A DNA stretch of 64,000 bases from Pirellulales bacterium (GTDB taxonomy: Bacteria > Planctomycetota > Planctomycetia > Pirellulales > Lacipirellulaceae), in assembly GCA_022841705.1 (NCBI GenBank), contig JALHQZ010000005.1, positions 33,223-97,222 of the forward strand, given 5' to 3'. Below the pieces are notes generated by a model. It did not search any database and was not told the origin of the DNA. It worked only from the letters and a program-made list of their open reading frames with translations. Shown here in pieces: positions 4,098 to 56,931 of this stretch. The position numbers and the translations under genes are program-made. Position 1 is the first letter of the stretch; each line of letters starts with the position of its first letter.

Positions 4098-4208
4098 AGC
4101 GCGAGGGGGCAGCAGGCTGGAGGCAGAACGCGACCGGGCCGGAAGAATAGCGGGCCGCGCCGCGGGGGGCCAGAGAGAAACGCGGCGCTGGTGCTAGCAG
4201 TCGCCCCT

Positions 4209-5783
4209 CTACTTCTCGGGCCGCAGCAGCGGAAACAGAATCACATCCCGAATCGACTGCGAATTGGTGAGCAACATCACCAGTCGATCGATGCCCAAAC
4301 CCAAGCCGCCGGCGGGGGGCATGCCGTGGCGCAGCGCGCGGATGAAATCGTGGTCCATCTTGGCCATCGAGTCTTCATCGTTGAGACCTTCGAGTTGCGT
4401 TTTGAACAGTTCTTCTTGCAGATCGGGGTCGTTCAGCTCCGTGTAGGCGTTGGCGACTTCCATCCCTTGGATGAACAATTCAAACCGCTCCGCAATCGCG
4501 GGGTTCGTGCGGCTGCGCTTGGTGAGGGGGCAGATACTCGCCGGGTAATCGGTCACGAAGATCGGGCCCACGAGCGAGTCTTCGACGGTCGCTTCAAAGA
4601 CATCGTTCTTCACCACATCAGGATGCCGGCCGGCTGTTTCGATGTGCAGTTTCTTAGCGACTGCGGCGACGGCGGCGGCATCGGTCGGCTCACAACCGGC
4701 GTGCGTGGCGAAGAGCTCGTCGTAGGTTTTTCGTGCAAATGGAGGTGTAAAATTGATGCTCGTTTCGCCCCACGGCAGCACCATGCTCGCGTCGCAAACT
4801 CCGGCCGCTTTGATCGCATCGACAATTATCGCCTCCGTTAAATCCATCATCGAGCGGTAGTCGCCGTACGCTTGGTACGCTTCGAGCATGGTGAACTCGG
4901 GGTTGTGCTTTTGGCTGATCCCCTCGTTGCGATAGACGCGGCCGAGCTCGTAGACGCGCTCGATGCCGCCCACGAGCAGCCGCTTGAGATGCAGCTCGAG
5001 CGCGATCCGCATAAACAGATCGATATCGAGCGCATTGTGGTGCGTTTCGAACGGCCGAGCGGCGGCGCCGCCGGCGATCGAATGGAGCGTGGGGCCTTCC
5101 ACTTCCACGAAGCCGCGCTGTGCGAGCGTTTCGCGCACGCTGCGGACGATGCGCGAGCGGGCAAGGAAGCGCTGCGTGACGCCATCGTTGTACGCCATGT
5201 CAACGTACCGCATCCGCTGCCGCAGTTCGGGGTCGGCGAGGCCGTGGTGCTTCTCCGGCGGCGGCTCAAGACTTTTCGTGAGAAAGTGAATCTTGGTGGC
5301 GAAAATCGACAGCTCACCCGTGTTCGTGAAGCCAAGCGTGCCATCGACGGCGATCAGGTCGCCGAGATCAAGCTGCTCGACCACGGCCCAGGTGTCGCCC
5401 ACTTGTTGCTTGCCGACCATCAATTGCAGTCGGCCCGATTGATCCACGAGGTCAATGAAGACCAGCTTCCCCGCAGTGCGCAGCAGGCGAATGCGCCCCG
5501 CCGCGCGCACGGTGGGGCCGACGACTTCGCCCTTGCCGTTGTCCGCTTTCCACTGGCGGAAGTTGAAATCGGGGATGGAAAAATCGGGCAGCGGCAGTTC
5601 CGCGCCCGTTTCCAGCTTGTAGCGCACCTCGCCCGCGCGAGCCCGCAGCTCGCCGATGGCGGAATGACCGTCGATCCGCTGACCCCACGGGTCGAGCCCC
5701 AACTCGGCCAAGGCGTGCAATTTCTCCCGCCGGGCGACGAGCGGATCGGTGGCGCCAGCAGGGCTATCGGGGTTTTCAGACAT
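4209..5783 (-). CDS. lysS: lysine--tRNA ligase (class II)
   Basis: 524 aa with an OB-fold anticodon-binding N-terminus and class II motifs (FMRIALELHLKRLLVGG, YRNEGIS, GGLGLGIDRLVMLL). Confidence 0.9.
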   Translation of the reverse strand: MSENPDSPAGATDPLVARREKLHALAELGLDPWGQRIDGHSAIGELRARAGEVRYKLETGAELPLPDFSIPDFNFRQWKADNGKGEVVGPTVRAAGRIRLLRTAGKLVFIDLVDQSGRLQLMVGKQQVGDTWAVVEQLDLGDLIAVDGTLGFTNTGELSIFATKIHFLTKSLEPPPEKHHGLADPELRQRMRYVDMAYNDGVTQRFLARSRIVRSVRETLAQRGFVEVEGPTLHSIAGGAAARPFETHHNALDIDLFMRIALELHLKRLLVGGIERVYELGRVYRNEGISQKHNPEFTMLEAYQAYGDYRSMMDLTEAIIVDAIKAAGVCDASMVLPWGETSINFTPPFARKTYDELFATHAGCEPTDAAAVAAVAKKLHIETAGRHPDVVKNDVFEATVEDSLVGPIFVTDYPASICPLTKRSRTNPAIAERFELFIQGMEVANAYTELNDPDLQEELFKTQLEGLNDEDSMAKMDHDFIRALRHGMPPAGGLGLGIDRLVMLLTNSQSIRDVILFPLLRPEK

Positions 5784-6680: not shown

Positions 6681-6756
6681 CTTTTGTACGATGGGCTCCT
6701 AGCCCGTCGCGAATTGAGTACCCGCCGCCCGACGGGCTGAAAGCCCATCGTATAAA

Positions 6757-9491: not shown

Positions 9492-9517
9492 CGACCGGGA
9501 CGGACTTCCTGTCTCTC

Positions 9518-9596
9518 GGGTGCCACTGTCCGGGTTGTCCGGCAGTGGACAACGGGTACACGCTTCCCACTGCCGGACAAGCCGGACAGTGGCACG
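9518..9596. promoter_or_regulatory. two tandem 26-bp palindromes CCACTGYCCGG-N5-CCGGRCAGTGG
   Basis: 9523-9548 is CCACTGTCCGGGTTGTCCGGCAGTGG and 9567-9592 is CCACTGCCGGACAAGCCGGACAGTGG. They lie 27-105 bp upstream of the DUF11 lipoprotein start at 9491 on the minus strand. Confidence 0.8.
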
Positions 9597-9913
9597 CAAG
9601 CGCGCAGCACCGCTAGTCTGGGGAACTCTACCGCCTGGGCAGGGTGGATGAGGCGAAATCGCCACATTCTGGGGTGACTTTTCGCCTCATTCAGACCGGT
9701 CGGGCGGGTTATCCGGATTTGACGGGCGGATCAACGACTTGCGTCGATGGAGAGAGGTCCGATTTCGCCTAACCGCGCTGGTTTTCTTGCTTTACCCAGG
9801 CTGCCCGATTACGATCAGGAATATCCGAGCGCTGCTCGGCTGAACCATTGAGGGTCGATCCTGCGCATTGTGATCGACCTCAGCACACCTGCTGCAACAC
9901 GCGACAACTCCCC

Positions 9914-11359
9914 ATGAAACTCTCCTACCGCTCCGTACTCGTTGCTCTCTTGTTCACCTGGGCCTCGATGGCCCACGCCCAATTTGGCGGCGGTGGGGGC
10001 GGACTCGGCGGGGGGGGCGGCGGACTTGGCGGCGGGGGTGGGGGTCTCGGTGGTGGCCAACAAGGTGGCGCCGGCCCCTCGGGCGTTGCAGTCGACGCCA
10101 ACGGAGTGCTGCGGCGTGTGATGTCGCAAGACGCCACCGGGCAGCTCGCGCGGCAACGTGCGAACGAAGCTTTGCAGCGCCTGGAAGGCAACCTTGCCAA
10201 GCCCAGCAAGCTCCGGAAGGTTTCGCTGACGCGACTCGAAAAATTGTTGGCCCAGAAACTCGCTGCAGGCAGCGGACCAGACGATACGATGAAAGCGCTC
10301 GCCGGGCTCACCCGGATCGATTACGTGTTTTGCTACCCTGACAGTGGTGATGTTGTTTTGGCGGGTCCCGCCGAACCGTGGGGCGAAGCGCCGGACAATC
10401 GGCTGCGTGGGGTGACGAGCGGCCGCCCGGTGCTCGAGCTGCAAGACCTGATCGTTGCGCTCCGGGCATTCGCGCCGGAAGCACGCAACAACAATCCGCT
10501 GATCTACTGCTCGATCGATCCCACGCCGGAAGGTCTGTCGCGCATGCAGCAGTTTCTCATTCAGTTCGGCCGGCAAGCCACGCCGAACGACACCCAATTC
10601 ATTGTGAATGAGCTGCAGGAAAAACTCGGCCCGCAGGTGATTACTGTCGGCGGTGTGTCGCCCAAGACGCACTTCGCCCAAGTTCTAGTGGAAGCCGACT
10701 ACCGGATGAAGCTCATCGGCATTGGCCTCGAACGCCCGCCGGTGCGGCTCACCAGCTACGTCGAACGGGCAAACCCCGCGATGGTCGGCCGCAACGCGCT
10801 GCAGCGGTGGTACTTCGTGCCTGATTACCAATGCCTGAAGGTGAGCGAAGATGGCCTGGCGATGGAAATCCTCGGCGAAGGGGTGAAGCTGATCGGCGAA
10901 GATGAACTGGTGCAACAAGATGGTTCGCGCAAGGGCGCCGGCAACTCCAACCGGGCGAGCCAAGGGTTCGTTGATTCGTTCACCAAGGTGTATCCCAAGC
11001 TGGCGGCCGTTTCGCCGGTGTACGCGCAGCTTCGCAATTGCATCGATCTCGCGGTTGCCGCGGCGTTCATTCAGCACCAAGACTTCTACGCCCAAACGGG
11101 GTGGGATTTGGCCATTTTCGGCGATGAGTCGAAGTACCCTGTGGAAACGCTCAACGCCCCGGAAAAGGTCGCCTCGGCCGTGAACAGCATTTGGAAGGGA
11201 AGCACGCTGATGACGCCCATCGGCGGCGGCGTGCAGATTCAGCCGACCATGGCGCTCGAATCGGCCAACCAGCAGCAGGATGAGGAGGGCGTGGTCACCG
11301 CGACCCGCGAACAGGTGCAGCCCAAAAATCTGGCTGACACCCAATGGTGGTGGGACTAG
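9914..11359 (+). CDS. secreted hypothetical protein with an N-terminal (GGGGGGL)x3 glycine-rich repeat
   Basis: Start trimmed to MKLSYRSVLVALLFTWASMAHA (signal peptide), followed by QFGGGGGGLGGGGGGLGGGGGGLGGGQQGG and then a ~430-aa globular region. It may be a planctomycete DUF, but I cannot name it with confidence. Confidence 0.6.
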   Translation: MKLSYRSVLVALLFTWASMAHAQFGGGGGGLGGGGGGLGGGGGGLGGGQQGGAGPSGVAVDANGVLRRVMSQDATGQLARQRANEALQRLEGNLAKPSKLRKVSLTRLEKLLAQKLAAGSGPDDTMKALAGLTRIDYVFCYPDSGDVVLAGPAEPWGEAPDNRLRGVTSGRPVLELQDLIVALRAFAPEARNNNPLIYCSIDPTPEGLSRMQQFLIQFGRQATPNDTQFIVNELQEKLGPQVITVGGVSPKTHFAQVLVEADYRMKLIGIGLERPPVRLTSYVERANPAMVGRNALQRWYFVPDYQCLKVSEDGLAMEILGEGVKLIGEDELVQQDGSRKGAGNSNRASQGFVDSFTKVYPKLAAVSPVYAQLRNCIDLAVAAAFIQHQDFYAQTGWDLAIFGDESKYPVETLNAPEKVASAVNSIWKGSTLMTPIGGGVQIQPTMALESANQQQDEEGVVTATREQVQPKNLADTQWWWD

Positions 11360-11421
11360 AGGAGGAGGGATTGGTGATCGGTGACTGGTGATCGGTAACT
11401 CGAAGCCTTTCCGATCACCGA

Positions 11422-12768
11422 TCAGTGTTTCCCCACGACAACAACGCGTAAATCACACACGTTGGTTCCCGTCGGCCCCGTCTTCAACAGACCTCCGCAG
11501 TCGTCGAAAAACGTGTAGGCGTCGTTGCGGGCCAAATGGTCTCGAGCACTAAGCCGGGATCTTCGAGCGATTGCGGTGTCCAGAATCGCCCCAGCGGCGT
11601 CAGTGGGGCCGTCTTCGCCATCAGTGCCGGCACTTACGAGGGCGATGTCCTGGCAGTCGCCGAGCACCTCCAGCGCGGCGAGAGCGAGCTGCTGGTTGCG
11701 GCCGCCGCGACCGCGGAGGGCGGGATCAGCGAGTTTGACGGTCGTCTCTCCGCCGGAGATCAGGCAGTTGGGGTTGCCAGAACTGCGCATTCGAAGGGCC
11801 GTCTCAGCCAAATGCCGGCCGACTTCTTCGGCCGGCCCTTCTGTGGCCGTGGCGCAAAGCATCGCGTGGTTGTAGCCGAGGCGCTCCGCTTCGACGCCCG
11901 CCGCATCCACCGCGACGGCATTGTTGCCCAATATGCGATACTCCAGGGCAGCCGTCACCTCGGCTTCGCCCCGCGCTTCGCGACTTAGCGCCCCGATGGC
12001 CCCAGCGCACTCACTCCGCCCGGCCATGGCGTACCGCTGCAAAATCTCCAGCGCTGCGCCTGGCACCGGCGGCGCCGGAACCGTCGGCCCCGACGCGATG
12101 AGATGAACCGGATCGCCCAACACATCCGACAGCGTGAGGGTCACCAGCCGCCCAGCGCGACACGCCCGCGCCAGACCGCCGCGTTTGATGGCGCTGAGAT
12201 TCGAGCGCACGAGATTGAGTTCTTCAATACTCGCGCCGGCGGCGCTGAGCAGCCGCGTGACGGCGATCTTGTCGGCAAGCGTTACGCCCGGCGCGGGCAG
12301 CGGAAGGAGCGCCGAACCGCCGCCGGAGAGGAGGCAGAGGCAGAGGTCGTTCGGTTGAGCGCTGGCCACGAGCTGCATCATCCGCCGGGCGGCGGTTTCG
12401 CCCTCGGGGCGGGGTTCGTTCACTCCGGCGGGGCGGCCGTGGATGAGCTCGATGTGCTCGAGCGGAACTTCGCTACCGGCGGGGATGGAGAGGAGGCCGG
12501 TGAGTTGTGGCGATGCGAAACGTGCGGGGGCCCGTTCAACAGGAGACGGGGCCGCGGCTAACGCCGCTTCGAGGCCGAGGGTCATTGCGGCGCTCGCTTT
12601 TCCGGCGCCGACGACGAGAACGCGGCCGATGGTGCGCAGGTCAAACTGCAAATCATCCACCAGCAGCCAGTGGCCATCAACCACCACCGCTTCCTGCACG
12701 AGCCGCTCTGGATCAACCGCGGCCACGCCGGCACGCCAGATTCGCAGCGCATCATCGCGGAGGGACAT
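11422..12768 (-). CDS. glycerate kinase (MOFRL family, glycerate 2-kinase/TtuD-like)
   Basis: 448 aa with VLVVGAGKASAAM, LSGGGSALL and GTDGEDGPTDAAGA, which are typical of the DUF4147+MOFRL glycerate kinases. Confidence 0.85.
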   Translation of the reverse strand: MSLRDDALRIWRAGVAAVDPERLVQEAVVVDGHWLLVDDLQFDLRTIGRVLVVGAGKASAAMTLGLEAALAAAPSPVERAPARFASPQLTGLLSIPAGSEVPLEHIELIHGRPAGVNEPRPEGETAARRMMQLVASAQPNDLCLCLLSGGGSALLPLPAPGVTLADKIAVTRLLSAAGASIEELNLVRSNLSAIKRGGLARACRAGRLVTLTLSDVLGDPVHLIASGPTVPAPPVPGAALEILQRYAMAGRSECAGAIGALSREARGEAEVTAALEYRILGNNAVAVDAAGVEAERLGYNHAMLCATATEGPAEEVGRHLAETALRMRSSGNPNCLISGGETTVKLADPALRGRGGRNQQLALAALEVLGDCQDIALVSAGTDGEDGPTDAAGAILDTAIARRSRLSARDHLARNDAYTFFDDCGGLLKTGPTGTNVCDLRVVVVGKH

Positions 12769-12788
12769 CTGTATTTCAGAAAAGATGG

Positions 12789-12958
12789 GGGACGCGGATT
12801 AACACGGATGCAGCGGATTAACGCGGATAACAAAAAGGGGAACGCTTATCTACACTAATTCCCACTAATCTGATTAGCGATGATTAGTGGAGATTAGTGT
12901 TCTTCTTTTCTCTCTATTCATCCGCGCGTATCCGCTGCATCCGCGCTCATCCGCGTCC
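12789..12958. repeat. ~170-bp intergenic element: imperfect ~42-bp inverted repeats built from GCGGAT(T) sub-repeats, flanking an AT-rich core containing CTAATC/GATTAG palindromes
   Basis: The left arm is GGACGCGGATTAACACGGATGCAGCGGATTAACGCGGAT. The right arm reverse-complements to GGACGCGGATGAGCGCGGATGCAGCGGATACGCGCGGAT. It lies between the rpiB stop (12973) and the glycerate kinase start (12768). Confidence 0.8.
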
Positions 12959-12972
12959 ACTATCTTCGTTTT

Positions 12973-18012: not shown

Positions 18013-18098
18013 ATCAGCCGCCGGGCGCTAGCCCCCGGTCGTTCAGATTGAGTTGACCAGTGTTTTGCACGACCGGGGGCTAGCGCCCGGCGGCTGAT
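18013..18098. repeat. REP-like 86-bp hairpin element, family A copy 1 (ATCAGCCGCC...GCTAGC...loop...GCTAGC...GGCGGCTGAT)
   Basis: ~30-bp perfectly complementary arms and a ~27-nt loop, in the divergent region between fae and the DUF1559 gene. Confidence 0.85.
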
Positions 18099-33473: not shown

Positions 33474-33581
33474 GTTTATGCCGCCGAGCGGGCTGTTTCA
33501 GCTACATTTCGTCGGCCAACCGCAATTCTTGGCGAAAATCGCCGGGCCGATTAGTTCGAGAAGGAGGGTTGTGCCGCCATT

Positions 33582-33662
33582 GTAGCAGGCACGGTCCCCG
33601 TGCCGTTGCCCCGAGTTGGAGTCTACCCTCGCAGAAACGGCACGGGGACCGTGCCTGCTACT
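33582..33662. promoter_or_regulatory. 81-nt hairpin with a perfect 26-bp stem (GTAGCAGGCACGGTCCCCGTGCCGTT / AACGGCACGGGGACCGTGCCTGCTAC) and a 29-nt loop
   Basis: Each arm contains the internal palindrome GGCACGG-N3-CCGTGCC. It lies in the divergent region between nfeD (start 33473, minus strand) and the 33741 plus-strand gene. Confidence 0.8.
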
Positions 33663-33740
33663 TTGGGCCGCATTGACGCCAACCGCCATGGCCGGGAAAC
33701 TAAGGGGCGAATCGGACTCGCGTTCCCACGGAAGTTTCCC

Positions 33741-36866: not shown

Positions 36867-36952
36867 ATCAGCCGCCACGCTCTAGCGTCCGGTCGTTCAG
36901 AATGCGGCGCAAATCACTACCAGCGACCGGACGCTAGCGCGTGGCGGCTGAT
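36867..36952. repeat. REP-like hairpin element, family A copy 2
   Basis: It shares the termini ATCAGCCGCC/GGCGGCTGAT and the central GCTAGC with copy 1. The arms carry compensatory substitutions that preserve pairing. It starts 5 bp after the fabF stop. Confidence 0.85.
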
Positions 36953-38654: not shown

Positions 38655-38689
38655 ACGCTTGCTGGAATTCCACCAGACAAACCACGAAA

Positions 38690-38856
38690 GCGAATGTTTC
38701 ACGTGAAACATTCGCTTTTTCATGCGCCGACTTGAAAAATGTTTCACGTGAAACAATTTGGTCACTCCGCTTCCTGACGGGCGCGGCTCGAAAAAATGTT
38801 TCACGTGAAACAATTTCCCCCTGAGGCCCGCCGTGAATTGTTTCACGTGAAACATT
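38690..38856. promoter_or_regulatory. array of four perfect palindromes sharing the core AATGTTTCACGTGAAACA (copy 1 is a 26-bp perfect palindrome GCGAATGTTTCACGTGAAACATTCGC)
   Basis: Copies lie at 38690-38715, 38738-38758, 38795-38815 and 38836-38856, with centre-to-centre spacing 45, 57 and 42 bp. The region is AT-rich in a GC-rich genome and lies 170-330 bp upstream of the ELWxxDGT giant gene. Confidence 0.85.
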
Positions 38857-39022: not shown

Positions 39023-42000
39023 ATGCCCTCTCGCGATCACCACCACCGGAAGCTGCGCTTTGAGACGCTGGAATCCCGCGCGATGTTAGCGGGGGATTTG
39101 GAGTTGGTGAAGGATATTAACCCCAGTCCAACCGGCACAAGTAGTTCGCCGAGTAACCTGGTCGATGTGAGTGGGGTGCTCTTCTTCGTCGTCAATGATG
39201 GGGCCAACGGCGAAGAGTTGTGGAAGAGCGACGGCACCGAAGCCGGCACTGTGATGGTGAAGGACATTTTCCTGGGCGGACCTTCATCGCCGCGGTATTT
39301 GACTAATGTTGGTGGCATCTTGTACTTTTCCGCTAACGACGGAGTGCATGGGAGTGAACTTTGGAAGAGCGATGGCACGGAAGCCGGGACGGTGATGGTG
39401 AAGGACGTGCGCCCCGGTTTCGTAGGTTCCGGCCCGAGCCAACTAATCAATCTTGCAGGGCAACTCGTTTTCGCCGCCAGCGATGGAAGCGTTGGTCAAG
39501 AGTTATGGCGCTCGGACGGCAGCGAGACTGGTACAGTTCTCGTTCGCGATATTCGTGAAGGCTCATCAAGCAGTAATCCGCGTTATTTTGGTGAGTCGGG
39601 AGGCATCGTCTATTTTCGTGCGAACGATGGTCTAACTGGCGAAGAGCTTTGGAGAAGCGATGGAACTAGCGCTGGCACTGGGCTGGTGAAGGATATTCGC
39701 ACCGGCTCGGCAAGCTCCGATCCCCGGCGATTCACGAGTCATCAAGGTGAAGTCTTTTTTGTCGCGAATGATGGGATGACTGGCGCTGAGCTTTGGAGAA
39801 CCGATGGCACGGCTTCAGGAACGATGCTGGTTCGAGATGTGTTCGTTGGGTCTGGCGGCGCAGACATCACGAGTTTGGCTTCAGTAGGAACCACGTTGTT
39901 TTTTGCGGCTCGCGGGAACGGAACTGCTGGCAAAGAACTTTGGAAAACGGATGGCACTTCGACAGGGACTGTGCTCGTTAAAGACATCCAAAGTTTAGGA
40001 TCTTCGTATCCTTCATCTCTGACGAATGTCTCTGGGGTGTTGTTTTTTCGAGCGACTGATAGCTTCGGAGACGCAGGACTCTGGAAAAGCGACGGCACTG
40101 AGTTGGGAACGCAAATTCTCACTCGCACAGATGCAAGCGCGTTCTTGAACTTCGCAGGTACTCTTTACTTCCGAGGCAATGGCGGTCAAGAAATCTGGAA
40201 ATCTGACGGGACAGTAGCAGGAACAATCATTGTCAAAGCGAACGATGCGAGCTACTTCACAACGGCGCCTCAACCTCTGGTAGCGGTAGGTAGTGCGATA
40301 TTCTTCCGTGCCCACGATGATAGTCATGGAGCAGAACTATGGACCAGCGATACCTCAAATGAGGGAACTAAACTGGTGCGAGATATTCGCACGGCGGGAG
40401 GCTCGGTAGGGACGGGCGTCGGTGACGCAAGTGTTCTCGATGGAGTAGTTTACTTTTTTGCAAATGATGGAGTTTCGGGCGGATTGTGGAGCAGTAATGG
40501 TTTCGAGGCAAACACTCTGAAAATTTCCCCTCCGGGAGTAACGGGCATCGGTGAAATCGAGGTCGCCGGCTCGGTGCTCTATTTTGTGGCGACTGTAGGC
40601 CAAGATTCCCAGTTATGGAAATCGGATGGCACCACTGCAGGCACTGTACTTGTCAAGGACATGACCCCCAGTTTCCGTCCGTCTTCAATCGGCGAGCTAA
40701 CAAACGTCGAAGGTGTGCTCTACTTCACGGCCACTGACGAAGTATCTGGGTACGAATTATGGAAGAGCGATGGTACGACCACCGGTACGGTCCGCGTTCG
40801 GGACATCAATCCAGGATCAGCAGGTTCGTCGCCCCGATACCTCACGAACGTCAACGGAACGTTGTACTTCACAGCGAACAATGGCGTAACCGGCAGTGAG
40901 TTGTGGAGAAGTGATGGAACAGAGGCGGGAACTGCGCTCGTGAAGGAGATCGTTCCTGGCGCCAATGTTTTTGGACCAGCGTGGCTGACGAATCTCGGCG
41001 ATGTGCTTTATTTTGTCGCGAATGATGGGACGAGCGGAACTGAGCTGTGGAAAAGCGATGGGACATCGGCAGGGACCAATATCGTGGTCGATATTCGCCC
41101 GGGGACACAGAGCGCTGTCCCCCAGTTCTTGACTGCTTCGGACCAAGGGCTTTTCTTCTCAGCTGATAATGGCTCACTAGGAGAAGAATTGTGGATCACG
41201 GATGGCACGGCCGTCGGGACACGGATGGTCAAAGATTTAACTCCCGGATTCGGCCGGGGGTTCTTGGGAGGATTGCAAAAAATCGGCAACTTCGTCGTCT
41301 TCCGAGGCCGTGATGGCTCAACGGGAGTTGAATTGTGGAAAAGCGATGGGACGGAAGTTGGAACCACTCTCGTCAAGGATATCTGGCAAGGCCCAGGAAG
41401 CTCGCTCAGCGAATCAGTCGGCATCATCAACGGCATTCCAAGTGACTTGACGCATTATGTAATGGCTAATGAACAGCTCTATTTTCGGGCGAGGAGTAGC
41501 GCGACCGGCACAGAGTTGTGGACCAGTGATGGCACCGAAACAGGCACGGTGATTGTAAGGGATTTGGTCGCGGGCTCTGGCGGCTCATACCCAACGGGAC
41601 TCTTCGCTGCTGGGGACCGACTGTTTCTTGCTGCGCTCACGCCAGAGATCGGATCTGAACTCTACTCCCTCACCACCATCACCCCGCCGGCCCTCCCCGG
41701 CGATTACACCCGCAACAACATCGTCGATCAAGCGGACTACGATCTCTGGCGTTCGACCTTTGGATCGGCAGTGAATCTGGCGGCGGATGGGAATGATGAT
41801 GGCATCATCGATGCCGCGGATTACACCGTGTGGCGAGACGCGCTACCGGCGCCGATTGCGGTGGCGACGACGGCCGTTAGTGCAATCGCCCCGCAGCCGA
41901 TTGCACCGTCGCCGGAGCGGCGGGTGGCGGTGAAGACGGCGCCGACCGAAGCGCTCCCCCCGCTGACGCGAGGGGCTCATGAACGGAATTATGACGCGGC

Positions 42001-42157
42001 GCGGGAGGCGGTGTTTGCGGAGCTGGGTGAGGCGGAAACGGTGGCGCCGTCGCGGATGAGTGCGAATCCGAACAATAGCCGGGGAGCTACGCTCCGCGGA
42101 GCGCGGCTGTTGCTAAAACCGCACATTTCTCTGGAAACCGCACTCCGCGGAGCGTAG
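39023..42157 (+). CDS. giant secreted ELWxxDGT-repeat protein with a planctomycete N-terminal motif and C-terminal dockerin-like repeats
   Basis: 1044 aa. The N-terminus RKLRFETLESRAMLAG is a planctomycete secretion-associated motif. About 17 tandem ~50-aa units of G.ELWKSDGTEAGT..VKDI.PG..SS.P..LTNV.G.LYF.A.DG follow (ELWxxDGT repeat, beta-propeller-like). The C-terminus carries two dockerin-like EF-hand repeats (NNIVDQADYDLWRSTFG, DGNDDGIIDAADYTVWRDAL). Confidence 0.8.
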   Translation: MPSRDHHHRKLRFETLESRAMLAGDLELVKDINPSPTGTSSSPSNLVDVSGVLFFVVNDGANGEELWKSDGTEAGTVMVKDIFLGGPSSPRYLTNVGGILYFSANDGVHGSELWKSDGTEAGTVMVKDVRPGFVGSGPSQLINLAGQLVFAASDGSVGQELWRSDGSETGTVLVRDIREGSSSSNPRYFGESGGIVYFRANDGLTGEELWRSDGTSAGTGLVKDIRTGSASSDPRRFTSHQGEVFFVANDGMTGAELWRTDGTASGTMLVRDVFVGSGGADITSLASVGTTLFFAARGNGTAGKELWKTDGTSTGTVLVKDIQSLGSSYPSSLTNVSGVLFFRATDSFGDAGLWKSDGTELGTQILTRTDASAFLNFAGTLYFRGNGGQEIWKSDGTVAGTIIVKANDASYFTTAPQPLVAVGSAIFFRAHDDSHGAELWTSDTSNEGTKLVRDIRTAGGSVGTGVGDASVLDGVVYFFANDGVSGGLWSSNGFEANTLKISPPGVTGIGEIEVAGSVLYFVATVGQDSQLWKSDGTTAGTVLVKDMTPSFRPSSIGELTNVEGVLYFTATDEVSGYELWKSDGTTTGTVRVRDINPGSAGSSPRYLTNVNGTLYFTANNGVTGSELWRSDGTEAGTALVKEIVPGANVFGPAWLTNLGDVLYFVANDGTSGTELWKSDGTSAGTNIVVDIRPGTQSAVPQFLTASDQGLFFSADNGSLGEELWITDGTAVGTRMVKDLTPGFGRGFLGGLQKIGNFVVFRGRDGSTGVELWKSDGTEVGTTLVKDIWQGPGSSLSESVGIINGIPSDLTHYVMANEQLYFRARSSATGTELWTSDGTETGTVIVRDLVAGSGGSYPTGLFAAGDRLFLAALTPEIGSELYSLTTITPPALPGDYTRNNIVDQADYDLWRSTFGSAVNLAADGNDDGIIDAADYTVWRDALPAPIAVATTAVSAIAPQPIAPSPERRVAVKTAPTEALPPLTRGAHERNYDAAREAVFAELGEAETVAPSRMSANPNNSRGATLRGARLLLKPHISLETALRGA

Positions 42158-42257
42158 CTCCCCGGCTATTTGGCTCATCGCTAGCTTCTTGAGCGCTCTC
42201 GCCGCATTCCGGCAGTTCTTGCTAGAATGGGGGTCTTGCCTCGGAGGGCCTCGCACG

Positions 42258-42562: not shown

Positions 42563-44002
42563 ATGCCTAAGCTCTACATCGAAACCGTCGGCTGCCAGAT
42601 GAACTTGCTCGATAGCGAGCTGGTGGTGGCGAGCTTGCGCAAGGAGGGGTACGAGCTGACTTCCAGCAAAGCGGAAGCGGACACGATTCTGTTCAACACG
42701 TGCAGCGTGCGGCAACATGCGGAGGATAAGATCTACAGCGCGCTGGGCCGCCTGAAGGATGCGAAGAAAAAGAATCCGGAGAAGGTGATTGGGGTGATGG
42801 GCTGCATGGCCCAGAAAGACCAGAAGCTGATTTTTGACCGGGCGCCGTTTGTGGATATTGTCGTTGGGCCGGGGCAACTGCAACGCATTCCGGAGCTGAT
42901 TCGCAACGCGCGGGGGAAGAACGAACATCAACTGGCGGTGAGTCTCGGTCGTAAAGAGGGGACGCGGGACACGATCGAGCGGAGCCACGAGAGTTTCGAT
43001 CCGCTGCGCGACCCCACCATGCGACCGACGCCGTTTCAGGCGTATGTGCGGATCATGATTGGCTGCGATAAGTTCTGCACCTACTGCATCGTGCCAAGCG
43101 TGCGCGGGCCGGAGCAAAGTCGGCCGCCGGCGCATATCATCGCCGAGGCGAAGCAATTGGCCGCCGAGGGGTGCAAGGAAATCAACCTGCTCGGCCAAAC
43201 GGTTAACAGCTACAAGGTTCGCGAAGGGGATCGTACGTGGCGGCTGAGCGATTTGCTCACGGCGCTACACGACATTGAAGGGATCGATCGCTTAAAGTTC
43301 GTCACCAGTTATCCGAAGGATATGACGGACGACCTCTTGGCCGCGGTGCGCGATCTGCCGAAGTGCGCGAAGTATCTGCATGTGCCGGTGCAGAGTGGCA
43401 GCGATGCGGTGCTGAAGCGGATGAAGCGCGGCTATACGGTGGCCGAGTATCGGGAGATGCTGGCCCGGGCGTACGAGTGGATTCCCGGCGTGGCGGTCAC
43501 CAGCGATTTCATCGTCGGCTTCTGCGGCGAGACGGAAGAGGAATTCCAACTGACGATGGACATCGTCCGCGAAAGCCGCTTCAAAAACAGCTTTATTTTT
43601 AAGTACAGCGAACGGCCGGGCACGAAAGGCGCCGAGCTGTATCCGGACGATGTGCCGGAGGAAGTGAAGAAGCGGCGCAACAACGAGCTGCTCGCGCTGC
43701 AAAACGAAATCAGCGAGGAAGATAACCACGCATTCTTAGAACGCCGCGTGGAAGTGTTGGTGGAGGGACCGAGCAAGAGTGAAGAGCGCCGCGGCCATGA
43801 CCATGACCACGAAGGCGGTGAAGGGCACACGCTCCAACTCACCGGCCGGACCATGTGCGACCGGATTGTGGTGTTCGACGGCAACCCCCGGCAGATCGGC
43901 CAAACGCTGCCGATCACCATTTACGACGCCAATGCCCACACGCTGTTCGGCGCTGTGGTGACAGAGCACGTGGGGATGGAGCTGTTTTCGCTGGGGGTTT
44001 AG
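42563..44002 (+). CDS. miaB: tRNA-2-methylthio-N6-dimethylallyladenosine synthase (radical SAM methylthiotransferase)
   Basis: MPKLYIETVGCQMN, the CDKFCTYC radical-SAM cluster motif, and a TRAM domain at the C-terminus. Confidence 0.9.
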   Translation: MPKLYIETVGCQMNLLDSELVVASLRKEGYELTSSKAEADTILFNTCSVRQHAEDKIYSALGRLKDAKKKNPEKVIGVMGCMAQKDQKLIFDRAPFVDIVVGPGQLQRIPELIRNARGKNEHQLAVSLGRKEGTRDTIERSHESFDPLRDPTMRPTPFQAYVRIMIGCDKFCTYCIVPSVRGPEQSRPPAHIIAEAKQLAAEGCKEINLLGQTVNSYKVREGDRTWRLSDLLTALHDIEGIDRLKFVTSYPKDMTDDLLAAVRDLPKCAKYLHVPVQSGSDAVLKRMKRGYTVAEYREMLARAYEWIPGVAVTSDFIVGFCGETEEEFQLTMDIVRESRFKNSFIFKYSERPGTKGAELYPDDVPEEVKKRRNNELLALQNEISEEDNHAFLERRVEVLVEGPSKSEERRGHDHDHEGGEGHTLQLTGRTMCDRIVVFDGNPRQIGQTLPITIYDANAHTLFGAVVTEHVGMELFSLGV

Positions 44003-44023
44003 CTCCCCGTACGATGGGCTCTT

Positions 44024-44119
44024 GTAGGATGGGTTATCCGCGCCAGCGGTAACCCATCGGACGCCAGAGTCGATCTCACCGCGTGATGGGTTACCGCCAA
44101 AGCGGATGACCCCTCCTAC
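44024..44119. repeat. ~100-bp nested palindromic element, family B copy 1 (GTAGGATGGGTTATCCGCG...CGGTAACCCAT...ATGGGTTACCG...GCGGATGACCCCTCCTAC)
   Basis: It lies between the miaB stop (44002) and the DUF4832 gene start (44195). Confidence 0.85.
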
Positions 44120-44194
44120 TTTTTGCGTCATCCCTCGCGATCGGCTAACGTAGCCTCTGGGGAGTTCTTGCACCTAGGCACGCGTGGATTGGTG

Positions 44195-45898
44195 ATGCAC
44201 CGGATACTTCGACGGATTTTGGCCGGAATTGTGCTCGCCCTTGCAACCACCGGGGCGTACGGCCAAGGGGCGCCGGTGACAACGAACTTCAACCCCACCA
44301 GCGACAAGATTCTCAACCCCGAGCGGGGGTTTATGCAGTTCAGCTTCCTCACGGATCCCTGGGAGTATGCGAATATCCGCAATCAGGGGCAGACCATGGT
44401 GTATGCGGGAGTGGTCGCCAGTAGCTATCGCAACGCGCCCCTCAGCACCACGTTTCTCAATCAGATTCAGGCGGGCTTTAACGCTGCGCGGACCAACGGT
44501 ATCAAGGTGAAGTTTCGCCTCGCTTACAACAATGACGGCGGGGCGGACGCGCCGAAGAGTGTCATCCTGGGACACATTGCGCAGCTCGCGCCGCTATGGC
44601 AAGCGAACAAGGATGTGCTGTTTCACCTGGACGCGGGGTTCATCGGGGGGTGGGGCGAATGGCACAGCAGCACCAACGGCAACGACACGCCGGCAAACCG
44701 GGCCGAGATTTTGGGCGCCATTCTCGACGCGCTGCCAGTTGACCGGACGGTGGGCATCCGCACGCCGCACTTCAAGCGCGAAATCTTCGGGGGCTCACAA
44801 TCGTCGGACACGGCGGTTATTACGGCGGCCAACGCGTTTGACGGGAGCGATTTGTCGCGGGTCGGACACCTCAACGATTGTTTCCTCTCTTCATCCACGG
44901 ATTTTGGCACGTACATCAATCCTGGCGGCGTGTGGCCGCTCAGTCGAGAACTGGCCTACATTGGTGGCGAGAGCCGCTTCGTGCCGATGGGGGGCGAAAC
45001 GTGCGCACCGCACTCGCGGAACGACGCCACCGCCGCGATCAACGAGATGACCACGCTGCATACTGATTATCTGAATCTTGATTACCATCCCGATGTGATT
45101 CAGAAATGGAAAACCCAGGGGGGCTTTGATGAGATTGATCGCCGGCTCGGCTATCGGCTTCAACTCAACAGCGCTGCGCTACCAACCACGGTGAAGCCGG
45201 GAGGGCTAATGCCAGTTAATATTAACTTGAGCAACGTGGGCTTCGGCGAGTTGTTCAATCCGCGCAATGTCGAGGTGGTGCTGCGCAACAACACCACGGG
45301 CGCGGTGGTCACCGCGGCGCTCGCGGCCGACCCGCGGTTTTGGTCGGGCGGAACCACGCAGACTCTGGCGACGCAACTGGTGCTGCCGAACGGCTTGGCG
45401 GAAGGGACTTACACTGTGGCGCTGTGGATGCCGGACAAGGAAGTCTCGCTCCGAAACGATGTGCGGTACGCGATTCGGTTCGCCAACACGGGGGTGTGGG
45501 AAGCGAGCACCGGGTACAACGTACTGACGAATTCGTTGATCGTCTCGAGCGCGGCGCCCGGGCCGAACATTGTGGGGGTGACAGTGCTGGCAGAAGCGGC
45601 AAACGTGGCGAATCTCACTTTGGCCGGCGACTTCAACCGGGATGGGGCCGTGGATGCGGCCGACTTCACCACCTGGCGAGATGCGTTAGGCGGTTCTGTG
45701 GTCACACCCTATGCCGGCGCCGATGGCAACGGGAATAGCCAAATCGACGCGGGTGATTTGGCGGTGTGGACTGCGAACTTTGGGACGACGATGCCAGCCA
45801 ACTCGGTGGCGGCGAACGCCGTGCCAGAGCCGGCGGGGTTGATGCTGGTGCTTCTTGTAGGATGCGTATGTAAGATGGGGTATCCGCGTGTGCGGTAA
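44195..45898 (+). CDS. secreted DUF4832/DUF4874-like (glycoside-hydrolase-like) protein with dockerin-like repeats and a PEP-CTERM anchor
   Basis: Start trimmed to MHRILRRILAGIVLALATTGAYGQG (signal peptide). The C-terminal region has GDFNRDGAVDAADFTTWRDALG and DGNGNSQIDAGDLAVWTANFG (dockerin-like), then VPEPAGLMLVLLVGCVCKMGYPRVR (PEP-CTERM). The family call for the N-terminal catalytic-like domain is tentative. Confidence 0.6.
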   Translation: MHRILRRILAGIVLALATTGAYGQGAPVTTNFNPTSDKILNPERGFMQFSFLTDPWEYANIRNQGQTMVYAGVVASSYRNAPLSTTFLNQIQAGFNAARTNGIKVKFRLAYNNDGGADAPKSVILGHIAQLAPLWQANKDVLFHLDAGFIGGWGEWHSSTNGNDTPANRAEILGAILDALPVDRTVGIRTPHFKREIFGGSQSSDTAVITAANAFDGSDLSRVGHLNDCFLSSSTDFGTYINPGGVWPLSRELAYIGGESRFVPMGGETCAPHSRNDATAAINEMTTLHTDYLNLDYHPDVIQKWKTQGGFDEIDRRLGYRLQLNSAALPTTVKPGGLMPVNINLSNVGFGELFNPRNVEVVLRNNTTGAVVTAALAADPRFWSGGTTQTLATQLVLPNGLAEGTYTVALWMPDKEVSLRNDVRYAIRFANTGVWEASTGYNVLTNSLIVSSAAPGPNIVGVTVLAEAANVANLTLAGDFNRDGAVDAADFTTWRDALGGSVVTPYAGADGNGNSQIDAGDLAVWTANFGTTMPANSVAANAVPEPAGLMLVLLVGCVCKMGYPRVR

Positions 45899-45963
45899 CC
45901 CATTGAACGCGACGCTTGACTCCACCGCCGATGGGTTACCGCTCCGCGGATAACCCATCCTAC
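45857..45963. repeat. nested palindromic element, family B copy 2
   Basis: It has the same arm set as copy 1, plus a 14-bp internal duplication. Its first 42 bp encode the last 13 codons and the stop (LVGCVCKMGYPRVR*) of the DUF4832/PEP-CTERM gene. Confidence 0.85.
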
Positions 45964-46058
45964 AAATCGAATCGCGGGCTGCTATACTAAAGCTATCGGT
46001 TACGCAGGCGATTCCTTCGGTTCTTCTCGGCCCTTCTTTCGGGCGCCGCTCCGCGCAC

Positions 46059-49000
46059 ATGGAACTCGACCTGCTGAAGCGTTACCTCGACGAGCCCACG
46101 GTGGCGACGCCGTGGCTGCAAACTCTGCGGCTCACCAAGACCAAGAGCGGGCACGACAACCTGCGCCGCATTGCGGAAGCGGGGGTCTCGCTCGATTTGG
46201 TCGATACGCTGTGCGAACAGTTTAAGGCCGCCGCGCCGACGCTCGCCGACGCCGACATGGCGTGGAACAATTTGGAGCGGTTCATCGTGGCGGCGCGGAG
46301 TCCCCTGGCCACGGTGGCGCTGTTCGAGCGCGATCGCTCGGCGCTGCCCAACTTGCTCTCCCTGTTTGCGTCGAGTCAGTACCTGAGCGATTTGTTGGTG
46401 CGCGATCAGGAATGTTACGACCTGCTGCGGATGACAGAGGGTCGGCCGGTGGCCCGCGACGTGCTGGTCGAAGAGATCACCGGCGAAGTTCTAGTGCATC
46501 ACGATATCAACCAAGCGAGTCGCACACTGCGGCGTTGCAAGCGGCGCGAGACGCTGCGGATTGCCTATGGCGATATCGTGCGCGGGCAGGTGGTGAGCAC
46601 GGTCGCGCGGCAGATCTCGTTTCTGGCGGACGCGCTGATCGAGGCGGCGCTCGCGTTTTTGCGGCGGCAACTGGTGGCCAGGTATGGCGAACCGCGCGAC
46701 GCCAAGGGCGACCCCGTGCGATACTGCGTGCTGGCGCTCGGCAAATTGGGCGGGATCGAGCTGAACTACTCGAGCGATATCGATCTGGTATTGCTCTACG
46801 ATCACGACGGTCAAACCTCCGGCCCGCGACCGATTGAGAATCGCGAGTTCTTTGATCGGCTGAGTCGCGAGCTGGTGAAGCTGCTCTCGGAACAAACCGA
46901 GTTCGGCGCCGTCTATCGGGTGGACTTGCGGCTACGGCCCGAGGGAACCCGCGGACCGCTCTGCCCGAATCTCGAGCAGATGATCGCCTACTACGACGTG
47001 AAGGGGCGCACTTGGGAGCGGCAAGCGTATGTGAAAGCGCGGGCCGTGGCGGGGGACATTTCGCTCGGCGATGAACTCTTGCGGCGATTGGAGCCGTGGG
47101 TGTATCGCCGGTACTTGAGTCTCGCGGATATCACGGGGATCAAATCGCTGAAGGCCCGCATCGAACATCGCACGCTGCTAGAAGAAGGGGGTGAACGGAA
47201 TGTCAAGAACGGCCCCGGCGGGATTCGCGACATCGAGTTCGTGATCCAGTTCCTGCAACTGCTGAACGGTGGCACGCTGCCCGAGGTGCGCACCGGCAAC
47301 ACGCTGGAAGCGGTCGAGCGGCTCGCGAAGGCGGGGTGTCTCACGCATCAGGAGGCAACTCTGCTAAGCGATAACTACAGTTTTCTGCGAAAGGTCGAAC
47401 ACCGGCTGCAGATTATGTTCGATCTACAAACGCACACGCTCCCCGCTGAGCCGGACGAGCTGCGCAAGCTGGCCGTGCGGATGGGGTACGTCGGCACGCC
47501 GCACCGGCTGCCGCTGGATATGTTCCGCGGCGAATTGCGCGAGCGGACTGAAACGAACCGCAAGATGCTCGATCACCTGCTGAGCGATGCGTTCGGCGGC
47601 GACCCCACGGCGGAGCCCGAAGTTGACTTGGTGAATGATCCGAGCCCCAGCTTCGAGCGGATTGAAGAGGTCCTCGGCAAGTACCAGTTTGAAGACGCGC
47701 AAAATGCGTACGACAATCTGATGGAACTGGCGACCGAGCGGATTCGATTCCTCTCGACGCGGCGATGCCGGCATTTTTTGGCCTCGATCGCCCCGCGGCT
47801 GCTCACGGCGATTTCACGAACACCAGACCCCGACGGCACGCTGGTGAGTCTGTGTCGGGTGAGCGATTCGCTCGGCGGCAAAGCGGCGCTGTGGGAGCTG
47901 TTTAGTTCCAGCCAGGCGTCGCTGCAATTTTATGTGAAGCTGTGCGCGGCGTGTCCGTATCTTTCCAGCATCCTCACCAGCAACCCGGGGATGATCGACG
48001 AGTTGATGGACAGCCTGCTGGTGGAAAACCTGCCGACACTAGCGATGCTGGAAACCTCGCTGGCGGAACTGGTGCGCGGGGCGGAGGACTTATCACCAAT
48101 TCTGCTCAGTTTCAAAAGCGCCCAGCATTTGCGTGTGGGCGTGCGGGACATTGTGGGCAAGGACGACATCCGCGACACGCATGCGGCGCTGTCGGACATA
48201 GCCGAGTGTTGCCTCAAGGCGATCATCGAGCGGGAGTACCAATGGCTGGTGGACAAGTTTGGCGAGCCGACGATTGGTGAAATGCCCGAACCGACCGCGG
48301 AGAACATGGCGTATCGCAGCCGATTTGCGGAGCGCGTTGGCGAACGCTCGGAACTGGTGGTGCTGGCGCTCGGCAAGCTGGGCGGGCGGGAACCGAACTA
48401 TCACAGCGATCTCGATTTGATTTTTCTATACGAAGCGGAGGGGCAAACGTTCCATCGCAAGCGGGGAAAAACTTCGGGGCTCACCACCACCAACGGCCAC
48501 TTCTTCAGCGAGCTCGGCCAGCGCATCATCAAGGTCGCCAACCAAATCGGCCCGCTCGGCCGGCTGTACGAAGTCGACATGCGGTTGCGTCCCGCCGGCA
48601 AGAGCAGTCCGCTGGCGGCGCCGATTGATAGTTTGGCCCGCTACTTCGCCAGTGGCCGCGGGCAGTTGTGGGAACGGCAAACGCTATGCAAAGCGCGGGT
48701 GATCTTCGGCGCCCACCGCGCGGCGGCATACGCGATGCACACGGTAGTCGAAGCAGCCTACGGCCCCGCGTGGAAGCCGGAAATGGCCCGCGAGATTCGT
48801 GAGATGCGCGCACGACTCGAAGAGTCCGCCACGCCAGCGAACCTGAAGCGTGGCCCCGGCGGCGCGGTGGATACCGAGTTCCTGGTGCAGATGCTGCAAC
48901 TCAAACACGGTCACGAAAACCCCGCAGTGCGTGTGCCGGGGACGCTCGATGCGCTCACTGCACTCGAAGAACACAATTACCTCTCCAGCGGCGACGCCCA

Positions 49001-55478: not shown

Positions 55479-55689
55479 GGCAATCGGGAAATGGGACAGC
55501 TAGCAGTGGAAACTCGGGCAGAGTGGGTGGGCCGGGGGGCCGGTTGTAGGGGTGGCCGGGGTCGGCGCGTCAGCCGCCCCCAGCCGGGGTGGAATGGCCC
55601 CTTGCGAATTCACGGTCACGAACCCGTTGCAGGGGACGCTCAGTCGGCACGGCTGAGGGCGGCGAAAGCGCCGACCCCAGCCACCCACC

Positions 55690-56845: not shown

Positions 56846-56931
56846 GGTTTTCGTAAGTGGCACGCGACCGAAGTCCCGTGCGCAAAATTGTGCTCGCACG
56901 GGACTTCGGTCCCGTGCTACAAACGACTTCA

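Follow-up and report, generated by a model that had tools for sequence, protein, structure and literature searches.

Two copies of a palindromic element of 94–96 nt, designated hereafter as element B, flank a gene for a DUF4832/PEP-CTERM protein in a 64-kb stretch of DNA from a Pirellulales bacterium of the Lacipirellulaceae (assembly GCA_022841705.1, contig JALHQZ010000005.1, positions 33,223 to 97,222; this whole stretch is called the window, and positions are those of the window unless a locus is named). In element B two repetitive extragenic palindromes (REPs), each tagged with GTAG, are joined head to head, so that it resembles the REP doublets known as REPINs. The explanation that we consider best, with a probability of roughly 0.8, is that a multi-copy family of REPIN-like GTAG-REP dimers in this planctomycete genome has copies that settle at gene ends. 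The two window copies would be separate occupants of neighbouring gene-end sites, one after miaB and the other at the end of the DUF4832 gene.

Copy 1 lies at 44024–44119 and copy 2 at 45870–45963. The left REP of copy 1 (44024–44058, plus strand) consists of the GTAG tag and a hairpin formed by GATGGGTTA(T)CCGC and GCGGTAACCCATC around a 4-nt loop. It is followed by a spacer of 26 nt (44059–44084), partially conserved throughout the family (..GCGCCA..TTCAC..CAT), and by the inverted and more diverged right REP (44085–44119, minus strand, on which it reads GTAGGAGGGGTCATCCGC), which runs directly into TTTTTG. Copy 2 comprises a left REP (45870–45904, plus strand; GTAAGATGGGGTATCCGCG TGT GCGGTAACCCATT), a spacer of 25 nt (45905–45929) and an inverted right REP (45930–45963, minus strand), the outer arm of which is perfectly reverse-complementary, over 21 nt, to the left end of copy 1. 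Each half-element is a hairpin of 13 bp with one bulged T (GATGGGTTA-T-CCGC, a loop of 3–4 nt, GCGG-TAACCCATC), preceded by the GTAG tag, which always lies on the outer side, and has the form typical of a REP, an imperfect palindrome of 20–50 nt forming a stem-loop. The two halves oppose each other across the spacer of ~26 nt, and folding is possible into a pair of small hairpins or into a single one of ~40 bp. The unit ATGGGTTA(T)CCGC is present four times per element, in the order plus, minus, spacer, plus, minus, in every copy of the family.

Searches of the window with the 19-mer GTAGGATGGGTTATCCGCG (up to 3 mismatches) gave four matches, at 44024 (plus), 44119 (minus), 45870 (plus) and 45963 (minus), and none in shuffled sequences. 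The inner 12-mer GCGGTAACCCAT (up to 1 mismatch) also matched four times against 0.36 expected, at 44046, 44097 (minus), 45892 and 45942 (minus), all in agreement with the nested positions predicted for it. A repeat search identified the 35-nt arms of copy 1 (44024–44058 and 44085–44119) as 83% complementary and aligned the two copies directly over 60 nt at 75%. A 95-position profile of 18 copies matched at full length at 44024–44119 (78 bits) and 45870–45963 (70 bits), with no further match in the 64 kb. Both copies fold stably: for RNA with short flanks, on either strand, the full hairpin reached −60 to −66 kcal/mol (z = −6.8 to −8.1), and for the element alone −55 to −63 kcal/mol as RNA and −33 to −34 kcal/mol as DNA, with values of −15 to −22 (RNA) and −7 to −13.5 kcal/mol (DNA) for the small REP hairpin. 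A sequence-only reading of this DNA had proposed that two palindromic copies bracket the gene, and the profile and the folding bear this out. An Rfam scan of 43500–46500 yielded no relevant family, only two weak chance matches.

Element B is a dispersed family rather than a local duplication. A metagenome scan with a pattern chosen to fit all four half-units of the window recovered 17 further copies on 16 LNFM01 metagenome contigs in unrelated flanks, giving a copy number of at least 19 (18 dimers and one lone REP), a lower bound drawn from part of the genome. Similarity among the copies begins and ends exactly at GTAGG...CCTAC and spans the whole 95 nt, the partly conserved spacer included, so that it is confined neither to arms of ~20 bp nor to the two sites in the window, and the earlier proposal of a dispersed REP-like family holds. 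The inverted REP pair at a fixed short distance, the hallmark of REPINs, is the main unit: 18 of the 19 copies are dimers with spacers of ~25–31 nt, and the single lone unit lies at locus L014 (1539–1578). The GTAG conserved in such REPs opens 34 of the 36 half-ends, counting GTAAG in copy 2. Nearly all of the at least 19 copies are intergenic or overlap gene ends only, and their assignment to a single genome rests on matching composition. The GC content of the 16 contigs is 0.611, compared with 0.610 in the window, their tetranucleotide correlation with the window (r = 0.98) is as high as that between the two window halves, and other palindrome families of the window also occur on them; on these grounds the contigs probably belong to the organism of the window or to one very closely related to it. 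The 95-position profile had no match in the relatives L022 and L024–L027, a scan with the inner hairpin pattern of a genome collection outside which the source genome lies gave only three chance matches in unrelated bacteria, and a scan of viral contigs gave 0 matches.

No target-site duplication was found at any of the 18 dimer insertions. The bases beside GTAG are A/T-rich, with T at −1 in 18 of 36 ends and A or T at −2 in 28 of 36. When the 18 copies were aligned, 96% of cells were paired in the structure with two small hairpins, which showed six compensatory cells in three pairs, a count reached by 0 of 500 shuffles; the single long hairpin showed one compensatory cell only. The small GTAG-tagged hairpin is kept as a module, the bias of the search pattern (see below) notwithstanding. 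Of correlated changes in the two halves, as would be expected if the dimer replicated as a unit, the sample biased in this way shows one case only, the copy at L015, which has the same T-to-C change in both outer arms.

The copies are found predominantly at gene 3′ ends. A gene reading into an element was taken as credible if it had at least 200 codons and a GC content at third codon positions of at least 0.70; the stop of such a gene lies inside the element or at most 34 nt before it for at least 13 of the 19 copies, the typical gap being 0–34 nt. In five to six cases the terminal GTAG supplies the stop codon through its TAG, as at L006 (minus strand, 1663), L007 (folP, 6324) and L008 (minus strand, 986), and at L013 (828–922) for both convergent genes. 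Deeper overlap was observed at L018, where a minus-strand open reading frame (ORF; 3296–4489) takes its last 27 codons (VGWVIRAAVTHQTPSSTPHHDGLPPRG and stop) from a full copy at 3286–3379. The product of this ORF is an unrelated PEP-CTERM/dockerin-like protein with the junction ...VPEPSSVMVATALL/VGWVIRAAVTHQ... before the stop, and the insertion follows ..ALL (GCTCCTC/GTAGG), similar to GCTTCTT/GTAGG in the window. In the window itself, the gene at 39023–42157, encoding a 1044-aa 'Planctomycete extracellular' protein, stops 28 codons inside a different palindrome (42074–42170), its tail being NNSRGATLRGARLLLKPHISLETALRGA and its TAG stop lying within the right arm of that element. Some copies lie between divergent genes (L009, L016), and at L014 a DUF3891 gene (756–1493) is flanked by a degenerate dimer (640–738) and the lone half-unit. 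Given the genes elsewhere that stop at an element end or read into an element, copy 2, part of which is coding, is no special case but a deeper instance of a general gene-end habit. A frame running through the copy at L012 was rejected as a gene, its translation being of low complexity and apparently out of frame. At L014 another hairpin (GGGTGCCACTGGCG..), related to the window palindrome at 9515–9600, adjoins the lone REP.

This placement could also be read as host use, the elements being kept as transcription terminators, as 3′-end stabilisers or as termination brakes within a few nt of the stop codon. In favour of this, hairpin stability is very high whichever strand is folded, copies cluster strongly at the 3′ ends of genes, and TTTTTG immediately follows copy 1. 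According to Liang, Rudd and Deutscher in 2015, a REP within ~15 nt of a stop codon reportedly reduces expression in Escherichia coli. General roles of E. coli REPs that would suit host use have also been listed (PMC8266576). However, a T-run follows only a few copies, and neither copy 2 nor most family members; a consensus terminator scan flags neither window copy; copies between divergent genes do not fit; and the presence of unrelated families at the same sites in sister genomes, described below, argues against a sequence-specific function. We consider it unlikely that the elements are kept mainly by host use. If the copies instead settle at gene ends as a REP family, whatever influence they might have on transcript 3′ ends or translation termination would be a by-product.

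The bracketed gene (44195–45898, plus strand) encodes a protein with a signal peptide, DUF4874, DUF4832, a dockerin-like repeat and a PEP-CTERM-like tail made up of VPEP, 13 hydrophobic residues and KMGYPRVR. The product ends in LLVGCVCKMGYPRVR (in a longer stretch, VPEPAGLMLVLLVGCVCKMGYPRVR), and the exact protein is also encoded on contig LNDY01000380.1 of GCA_001464525.1 and on one JGI metagenome contig. Named homologues assign the organism to the Lacipirellulaceae in the order Pirellulales. The TAA stop (45896–45898) lies inside the inner arm of copy 2 (GCGG-TAA-CCCAT), and the left REP encodes (C)KMGYPRVR ahead of it. Tail and stop are read directly from copy 2, in keeping with the C-terminal tail donation suggested by the sequence-only reading, which had also correctly foreseen ...MGYPRQR and a stop in the same frame of copy 1 (the full reading is RMGYPRQR). 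It had, however, let the downstream element begin at 45857 and supply the last 13 codons, and here it has to be amended: the profile puts the start at 45870, and the contribution of copy 2 comprises two nt of the Cys codon, KMGYPRVR and the stop. The 14-bp internal duplication that had been seen in copy 2 is also to be read differently. The preceding 12-mer GTAGGATGCGTA (45857–45868, plus strand), coding for VGCV of the hydrophobic tail, agrees with the 5′ end of the REP in 10 of 12 positions, where the background is 2e-5 per position; for the orthologous segments of two relatives the agreement is 8/12 and 7/12, with 12/19 for L022. It is collinear with the orthologue codons for AACV (L023) and VGLF (L022) and adds no length compared with either. 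From the lack of added length combined with the REP-like match, GTAGGATGCGTA might most economically be read as the end of an old REP that has become fixed in the coding sequence, rather than as a recent duplication, a reading in which we have low confidence.

The relatives in question, L022 and L023, are close to the window and keep the gene order miaB-DUF4832-glnE, and the flanks of all three align up to the element boundaries. In L022, the protein of which is 91% identical, a second family (GGGTGGCTGGGGTCGGCGCG...) is present at both junctions (9497–9590 and 11340–11510), being tandemly reiterated at the downstream site, and encodes most of the tail, GRGGGWGRRVSRPQPW and stop; the same family occurs in the window at 55550–55686. 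In L023 (86% amino acid identity) the second family lies upstream (1–75) and the GTAGGATGGGTTATCCGCG family downstream, at the same codon as in the window, with a tail of ...AACVSRMGYPR and stop. Upstream and downstream occupants are therefore of families 1/1 in the window, 2/2 in L022 and 2/1 in L023, and with such different occupants the two junction sites look like repeat hot spots with turnover rather than the ends of a composite transposon. Palindromic repeats, and not ordinary flanks, accompany the gene in both relatives. In all three proteins exactly 13 residues follow PEP before a basic residue, which fits a filter that keeps only insertions restoring a hydrophobic-plus-basic end. Just to the left of copy 1, GTACGATGGGCTC (44007–44019, plus strand) is a fragment of a different palindromic family with a full copy at 6683–6756, and points to earlier repeat occupancy of the copy 1 site. 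Both ends of contig L023 break inside repeats. At the L022 locus a number of genes, miaB and glnE among them, are each broken up into short ORFs, which suggests frameshift errors of a long-read assembly rather than real pseudogenes, and the protein call P0002 (462 aa) is for this reason taken as truncated.

More distant relatives within the Lacipirellulaceae bear on the origin of the gene. In L026 and L027, with MiaB proteins 78–80% identical, glnE comes directly after miaB (L026 8423–8634; L027 8450–8817), and the miaB-glnE spacer of L027, which lacks the DUF4832 gene, contains a palindrome of ~165 nt belonging to a further family. Judged from this gene order, the DUF4832 gene is a lineage-specific insertion that entered the miaB-glnE spacer in the ancestor from which the window's clade descends. 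At 68% identity, the closest DUF4832 homologues outside this synteny are located in other neighbourhoods and have canonical ...GRRR tails, and no palindrome was found at either of their junctions. Nothing links the element B family to the arrival of the gene.

It is conceivable that REP ends are more than tolerated passengers, in one of two ways. First, the frames VGWVIR... and (K/R)MGYPR.. with stop may be repeatedly used as the hydrophobic and basic end of PEP-CTERM signals, a suggestion prompted by their occurrence in two unrelated PEP-CTERM genes (DUF4832 and L018), by the retention at the same codon in the 86%-identical orthologue and by the putative VGCV relic. Second, REP pairs may serve as ends for a transposase with a single catalytic tyrosine (Y1) that moves genes, which could explain both the position of the DUF4832 gene between miaB and glnE and the bracketed DUF3891 gene in L014. 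Taken together, we regard such roles as distinctly unlikely.

Somewhat more improbable is that the two copies are the ends of a mobile unit, the DUF4832 gene having been moved as a cassette into the miaB-glnE spacer by an enzyme of the type of the REP-associated tyrosine transposases (RAYT) or by recombination between REPs. The adjacency of miaB and glnE in L026 and L027 supports the insertion itself, palindromic repeats are present at both junctions in the window, L022 and L023, the same family also stands on both sides of another single gene, DUF3891 in L014, and copies 1.8 kb apart are unexpected at two copies per 64-kb window. Against this, the junction families differ among the three genomes and none of them marks the insertion throughout, the homologues nearest in sequence among those without the synteny have no palindrome at either junction, a second copy of the gene with its flanks was not found, and the palindrome in the empty L027 spacer shows that this spacer attracts repeats regardless of the gene. 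Of the element-mediated insertion of the gene envisaged by the sequence-only reading, the insertion is retained, and its mediation by these copies is not supported, since close relatives hold a different family at one or both junctions and the distant homologues have no junction palindromes.

The same reading had offered the label MITE, for miniature inverted-repeat transposable element, by which element B would be a deletion derivative of a DDE-type insertion sequence that moved by means of its 35-nt terminal inverted repeats. Terminal inverted repeats are indeed present (83% complementary in copy 1), as are a length of ~95 nt, many copies and unrelated flanks. However, the absence of target-site duplications at all 18 insertions is contrary to what is expected of a MITE, each supposed terminal repeat is itself a GTAG-tagged hairpin maintained by compensatory changes, and one copy is a lone half-unit (L014 1539–1578), all three features being typical of REPs rather than MITEs. 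A MITE is thus highly improbable. A local duplication of one palindrome unique to the locus, suggested by the presence of only two copies in the 64-kb window, is refuted by the 17 copies on 16 composition-matched contigs and by the same family at the orthologous site of L023. Integron attC sites around a gene cassette would likewise be ~100-nt imperfect palindromes at an ORF 3′ end, overlapping the stop, one on each side of a single gene, but the ends here are GTAGG and CCTAC without RYYYAAC or GTTRRRY core sites, the copies are scattered among housekeeping genes (folP, miaB, glnE) without forming an array, and no integrase gene is nearby, so that this origin can be set aside just as firmly.

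If a GTAG-REP family that settles at gene ends is accepted, its spread may be pictured by analogy with REP/RAYT systems. Copies would move as single-stranded DNA by the action of an HUH/Y1 transposase (RAYT/TnpA-REP) that recognises the hairpin together with GTAG and inserts without duplicating the target site, and would survive at places where the harm is small, chiefly immediately behind the 3′ ends of genes or a short way into them. Copy 2, or an ancestor shared with the L023 lineage, would have landed inside the hydrophobic PEP-CTERM tail and been tolerated because the frame of the element restores a basic residue and a stop eight codons later.

Several observations weigh against this interpretation. 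A tblastn search with an E. coli RayT query, over the window and fetched loci amounting to ~150 kb, returned no RAYT, and a scan for HUH and Y..NP motifs in open frames of at least 90 aa in the window and fetched loci detected no Y1 transposase; the mobilising enzyme is inferred purely by analogy. The DUF3891 gene between the L014 copies is not a transposase gene, and L007 contains genes for PII, folP and a sigma factor without a transposase. The metagenome pattern demanded one consensus half and hence biased both the copies and the variation recovered, inflating the conservation of the right half and concentrating variation in the left. At least 19 copies is a modest number compared with classic REP families. 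Finally, two copies of the same family lie 1.8 kb apart here with none elsewhere in the 64 kb, and a single gene is bracketed likewise in L014; this closeness is non-random and is not explained by simple independent settling.

Element B has close counterparts among known GTAG REPs. Such REPs have been described from several phyla including Planctomycetes, among them R. baltica, which has the families GTAG-20 and GTAG-21 as well as many tyrosine transposase genes (Di Nocera, De Gregorio and Rocco 2013, PMC3733652). The head-to-head dimers of that study have GTAG outside a short stem-loop and inverted units 20–100 bp apart with conserved spacers, several families occur per genome, termini donate TAG stops and copies lie at ORF ends (PMC3733652), all of which element B shares, its spacer being partly conserved; it differs in its host, an uncultured member of the Lacipirellulaceae, in the at least 19 copies seen and in a transposase postulated by analogy only. 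The stem GATGGGTTATCCGC had no match in the text or searched supplements of PMC3733652, and a literature string search with the element sequence returned only unrelated primers and aptamers. The family of stem sequences therefore appears to be new, and its kind, the GTAG REP, is already known.

REPs often occur as a pair, one of the two being inverted, and have a TnpA-REP/RAYT gene associated with them, and in E. coli both GTAG and the stem bulge are needed for cleavage by TnpA-REP (PMC8266576). Like the REP/BIME (bacterial interspersed mosaic element) sequences of E. coli and their TnpA-REP (Ton-Hoang 2012; Messing 2012; Corneloup 2021, PMC8266576), element B has GTAG before an imperfect palindrome with a stem irregularity, here the bulged T, and a REP and inverted REP separated by a linker, whereas the sequences are unrelated and tandem BIME arrays are absent from this locus. 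As in bacterial MITEs, the element is short, non-autonomous and multi-copy with inverted ends, differing from them in the points given above, namely the missing target-site duplication, ends that are independent hairpin modules and the lone half-unit.

Two further systems are worth comparing. The REPINs of Pseudomonas fluorescens and their RAYT were reportedly described by Bertels and Rainey in 2011; shared with these are the dominance of the inverted REP pair (18 dimers to one singlet here), the possibility of a long hairpin, extragenic copies and the absence of target-site duplications, whereas compensatory changes here favour the small REP hairpins over the long one. Rickettsia palindromic elements (RPEs) are said to be inserted in frame into genes, following Ogata et al. 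in 2000. They resemble element B in that part of a palindromic repeat is translated within a host protein; in RPEs the translated part is internal, whereas here only the extreme C-terminus is affected (8–27 codons) and the repeat carries GTAG. RPEs are also discussed in PMC3733652.

Current understanding of REPs is unchanged by these results, settling at gene ends being a well-documented, ordinary case and several of the features found here having already been described for GTAG REPs. What is added is a defined GTAG-REP/REPIN family from the Lacipirellulaceae, a lineage in which REPs have scarcely been described, together with a clear case, across three genomes, in which the same pair of gene-end sites has exchanged two repeat families. 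The C-terminal sorting signal of surface proteins is here rewritten by repeat DNA, and this accounts for contig breaks and odd C-terminal tails in the annotation of metagenome-assembled genomes of this group.

The surroundings of the two copies contain additional features. From copy 1 to the start codon of the DUF4832 gene lie 75 nt (44120–44194; TTTTTGCGTCATCC..GGCTAACGTAGC..GGGGAGTTCT..) that are well conserved in L022 and L023 and probably hold the promoter and ribosome-binding site of the gene. Downstream of copy 2, TATACT at ~45985–45990 resembles a −10 box of glnE. The window has at least eight other long intergenic palindromes of several families, found at 6683–6756, 9515–9600, 12782–12966, 18013–18098, 33577–33666, 36867–36952, 42074–42170, 55550–55686 and 56851–56926. 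Those at 18013–18098 and 36867–36952 form one family, the elements at 33577 and 56851 begin with GTAG-like or GTAA-like tags, and several of these other families recur in L022 as well as on LNFM01 contigs. At 38687–38856 the perfect palindrome AATGTTTCACGTGAAACATT is present four times at a spacing of ~40–57 nt, an arrangement more suggestive of an array of operators or binding sites than of a REP.

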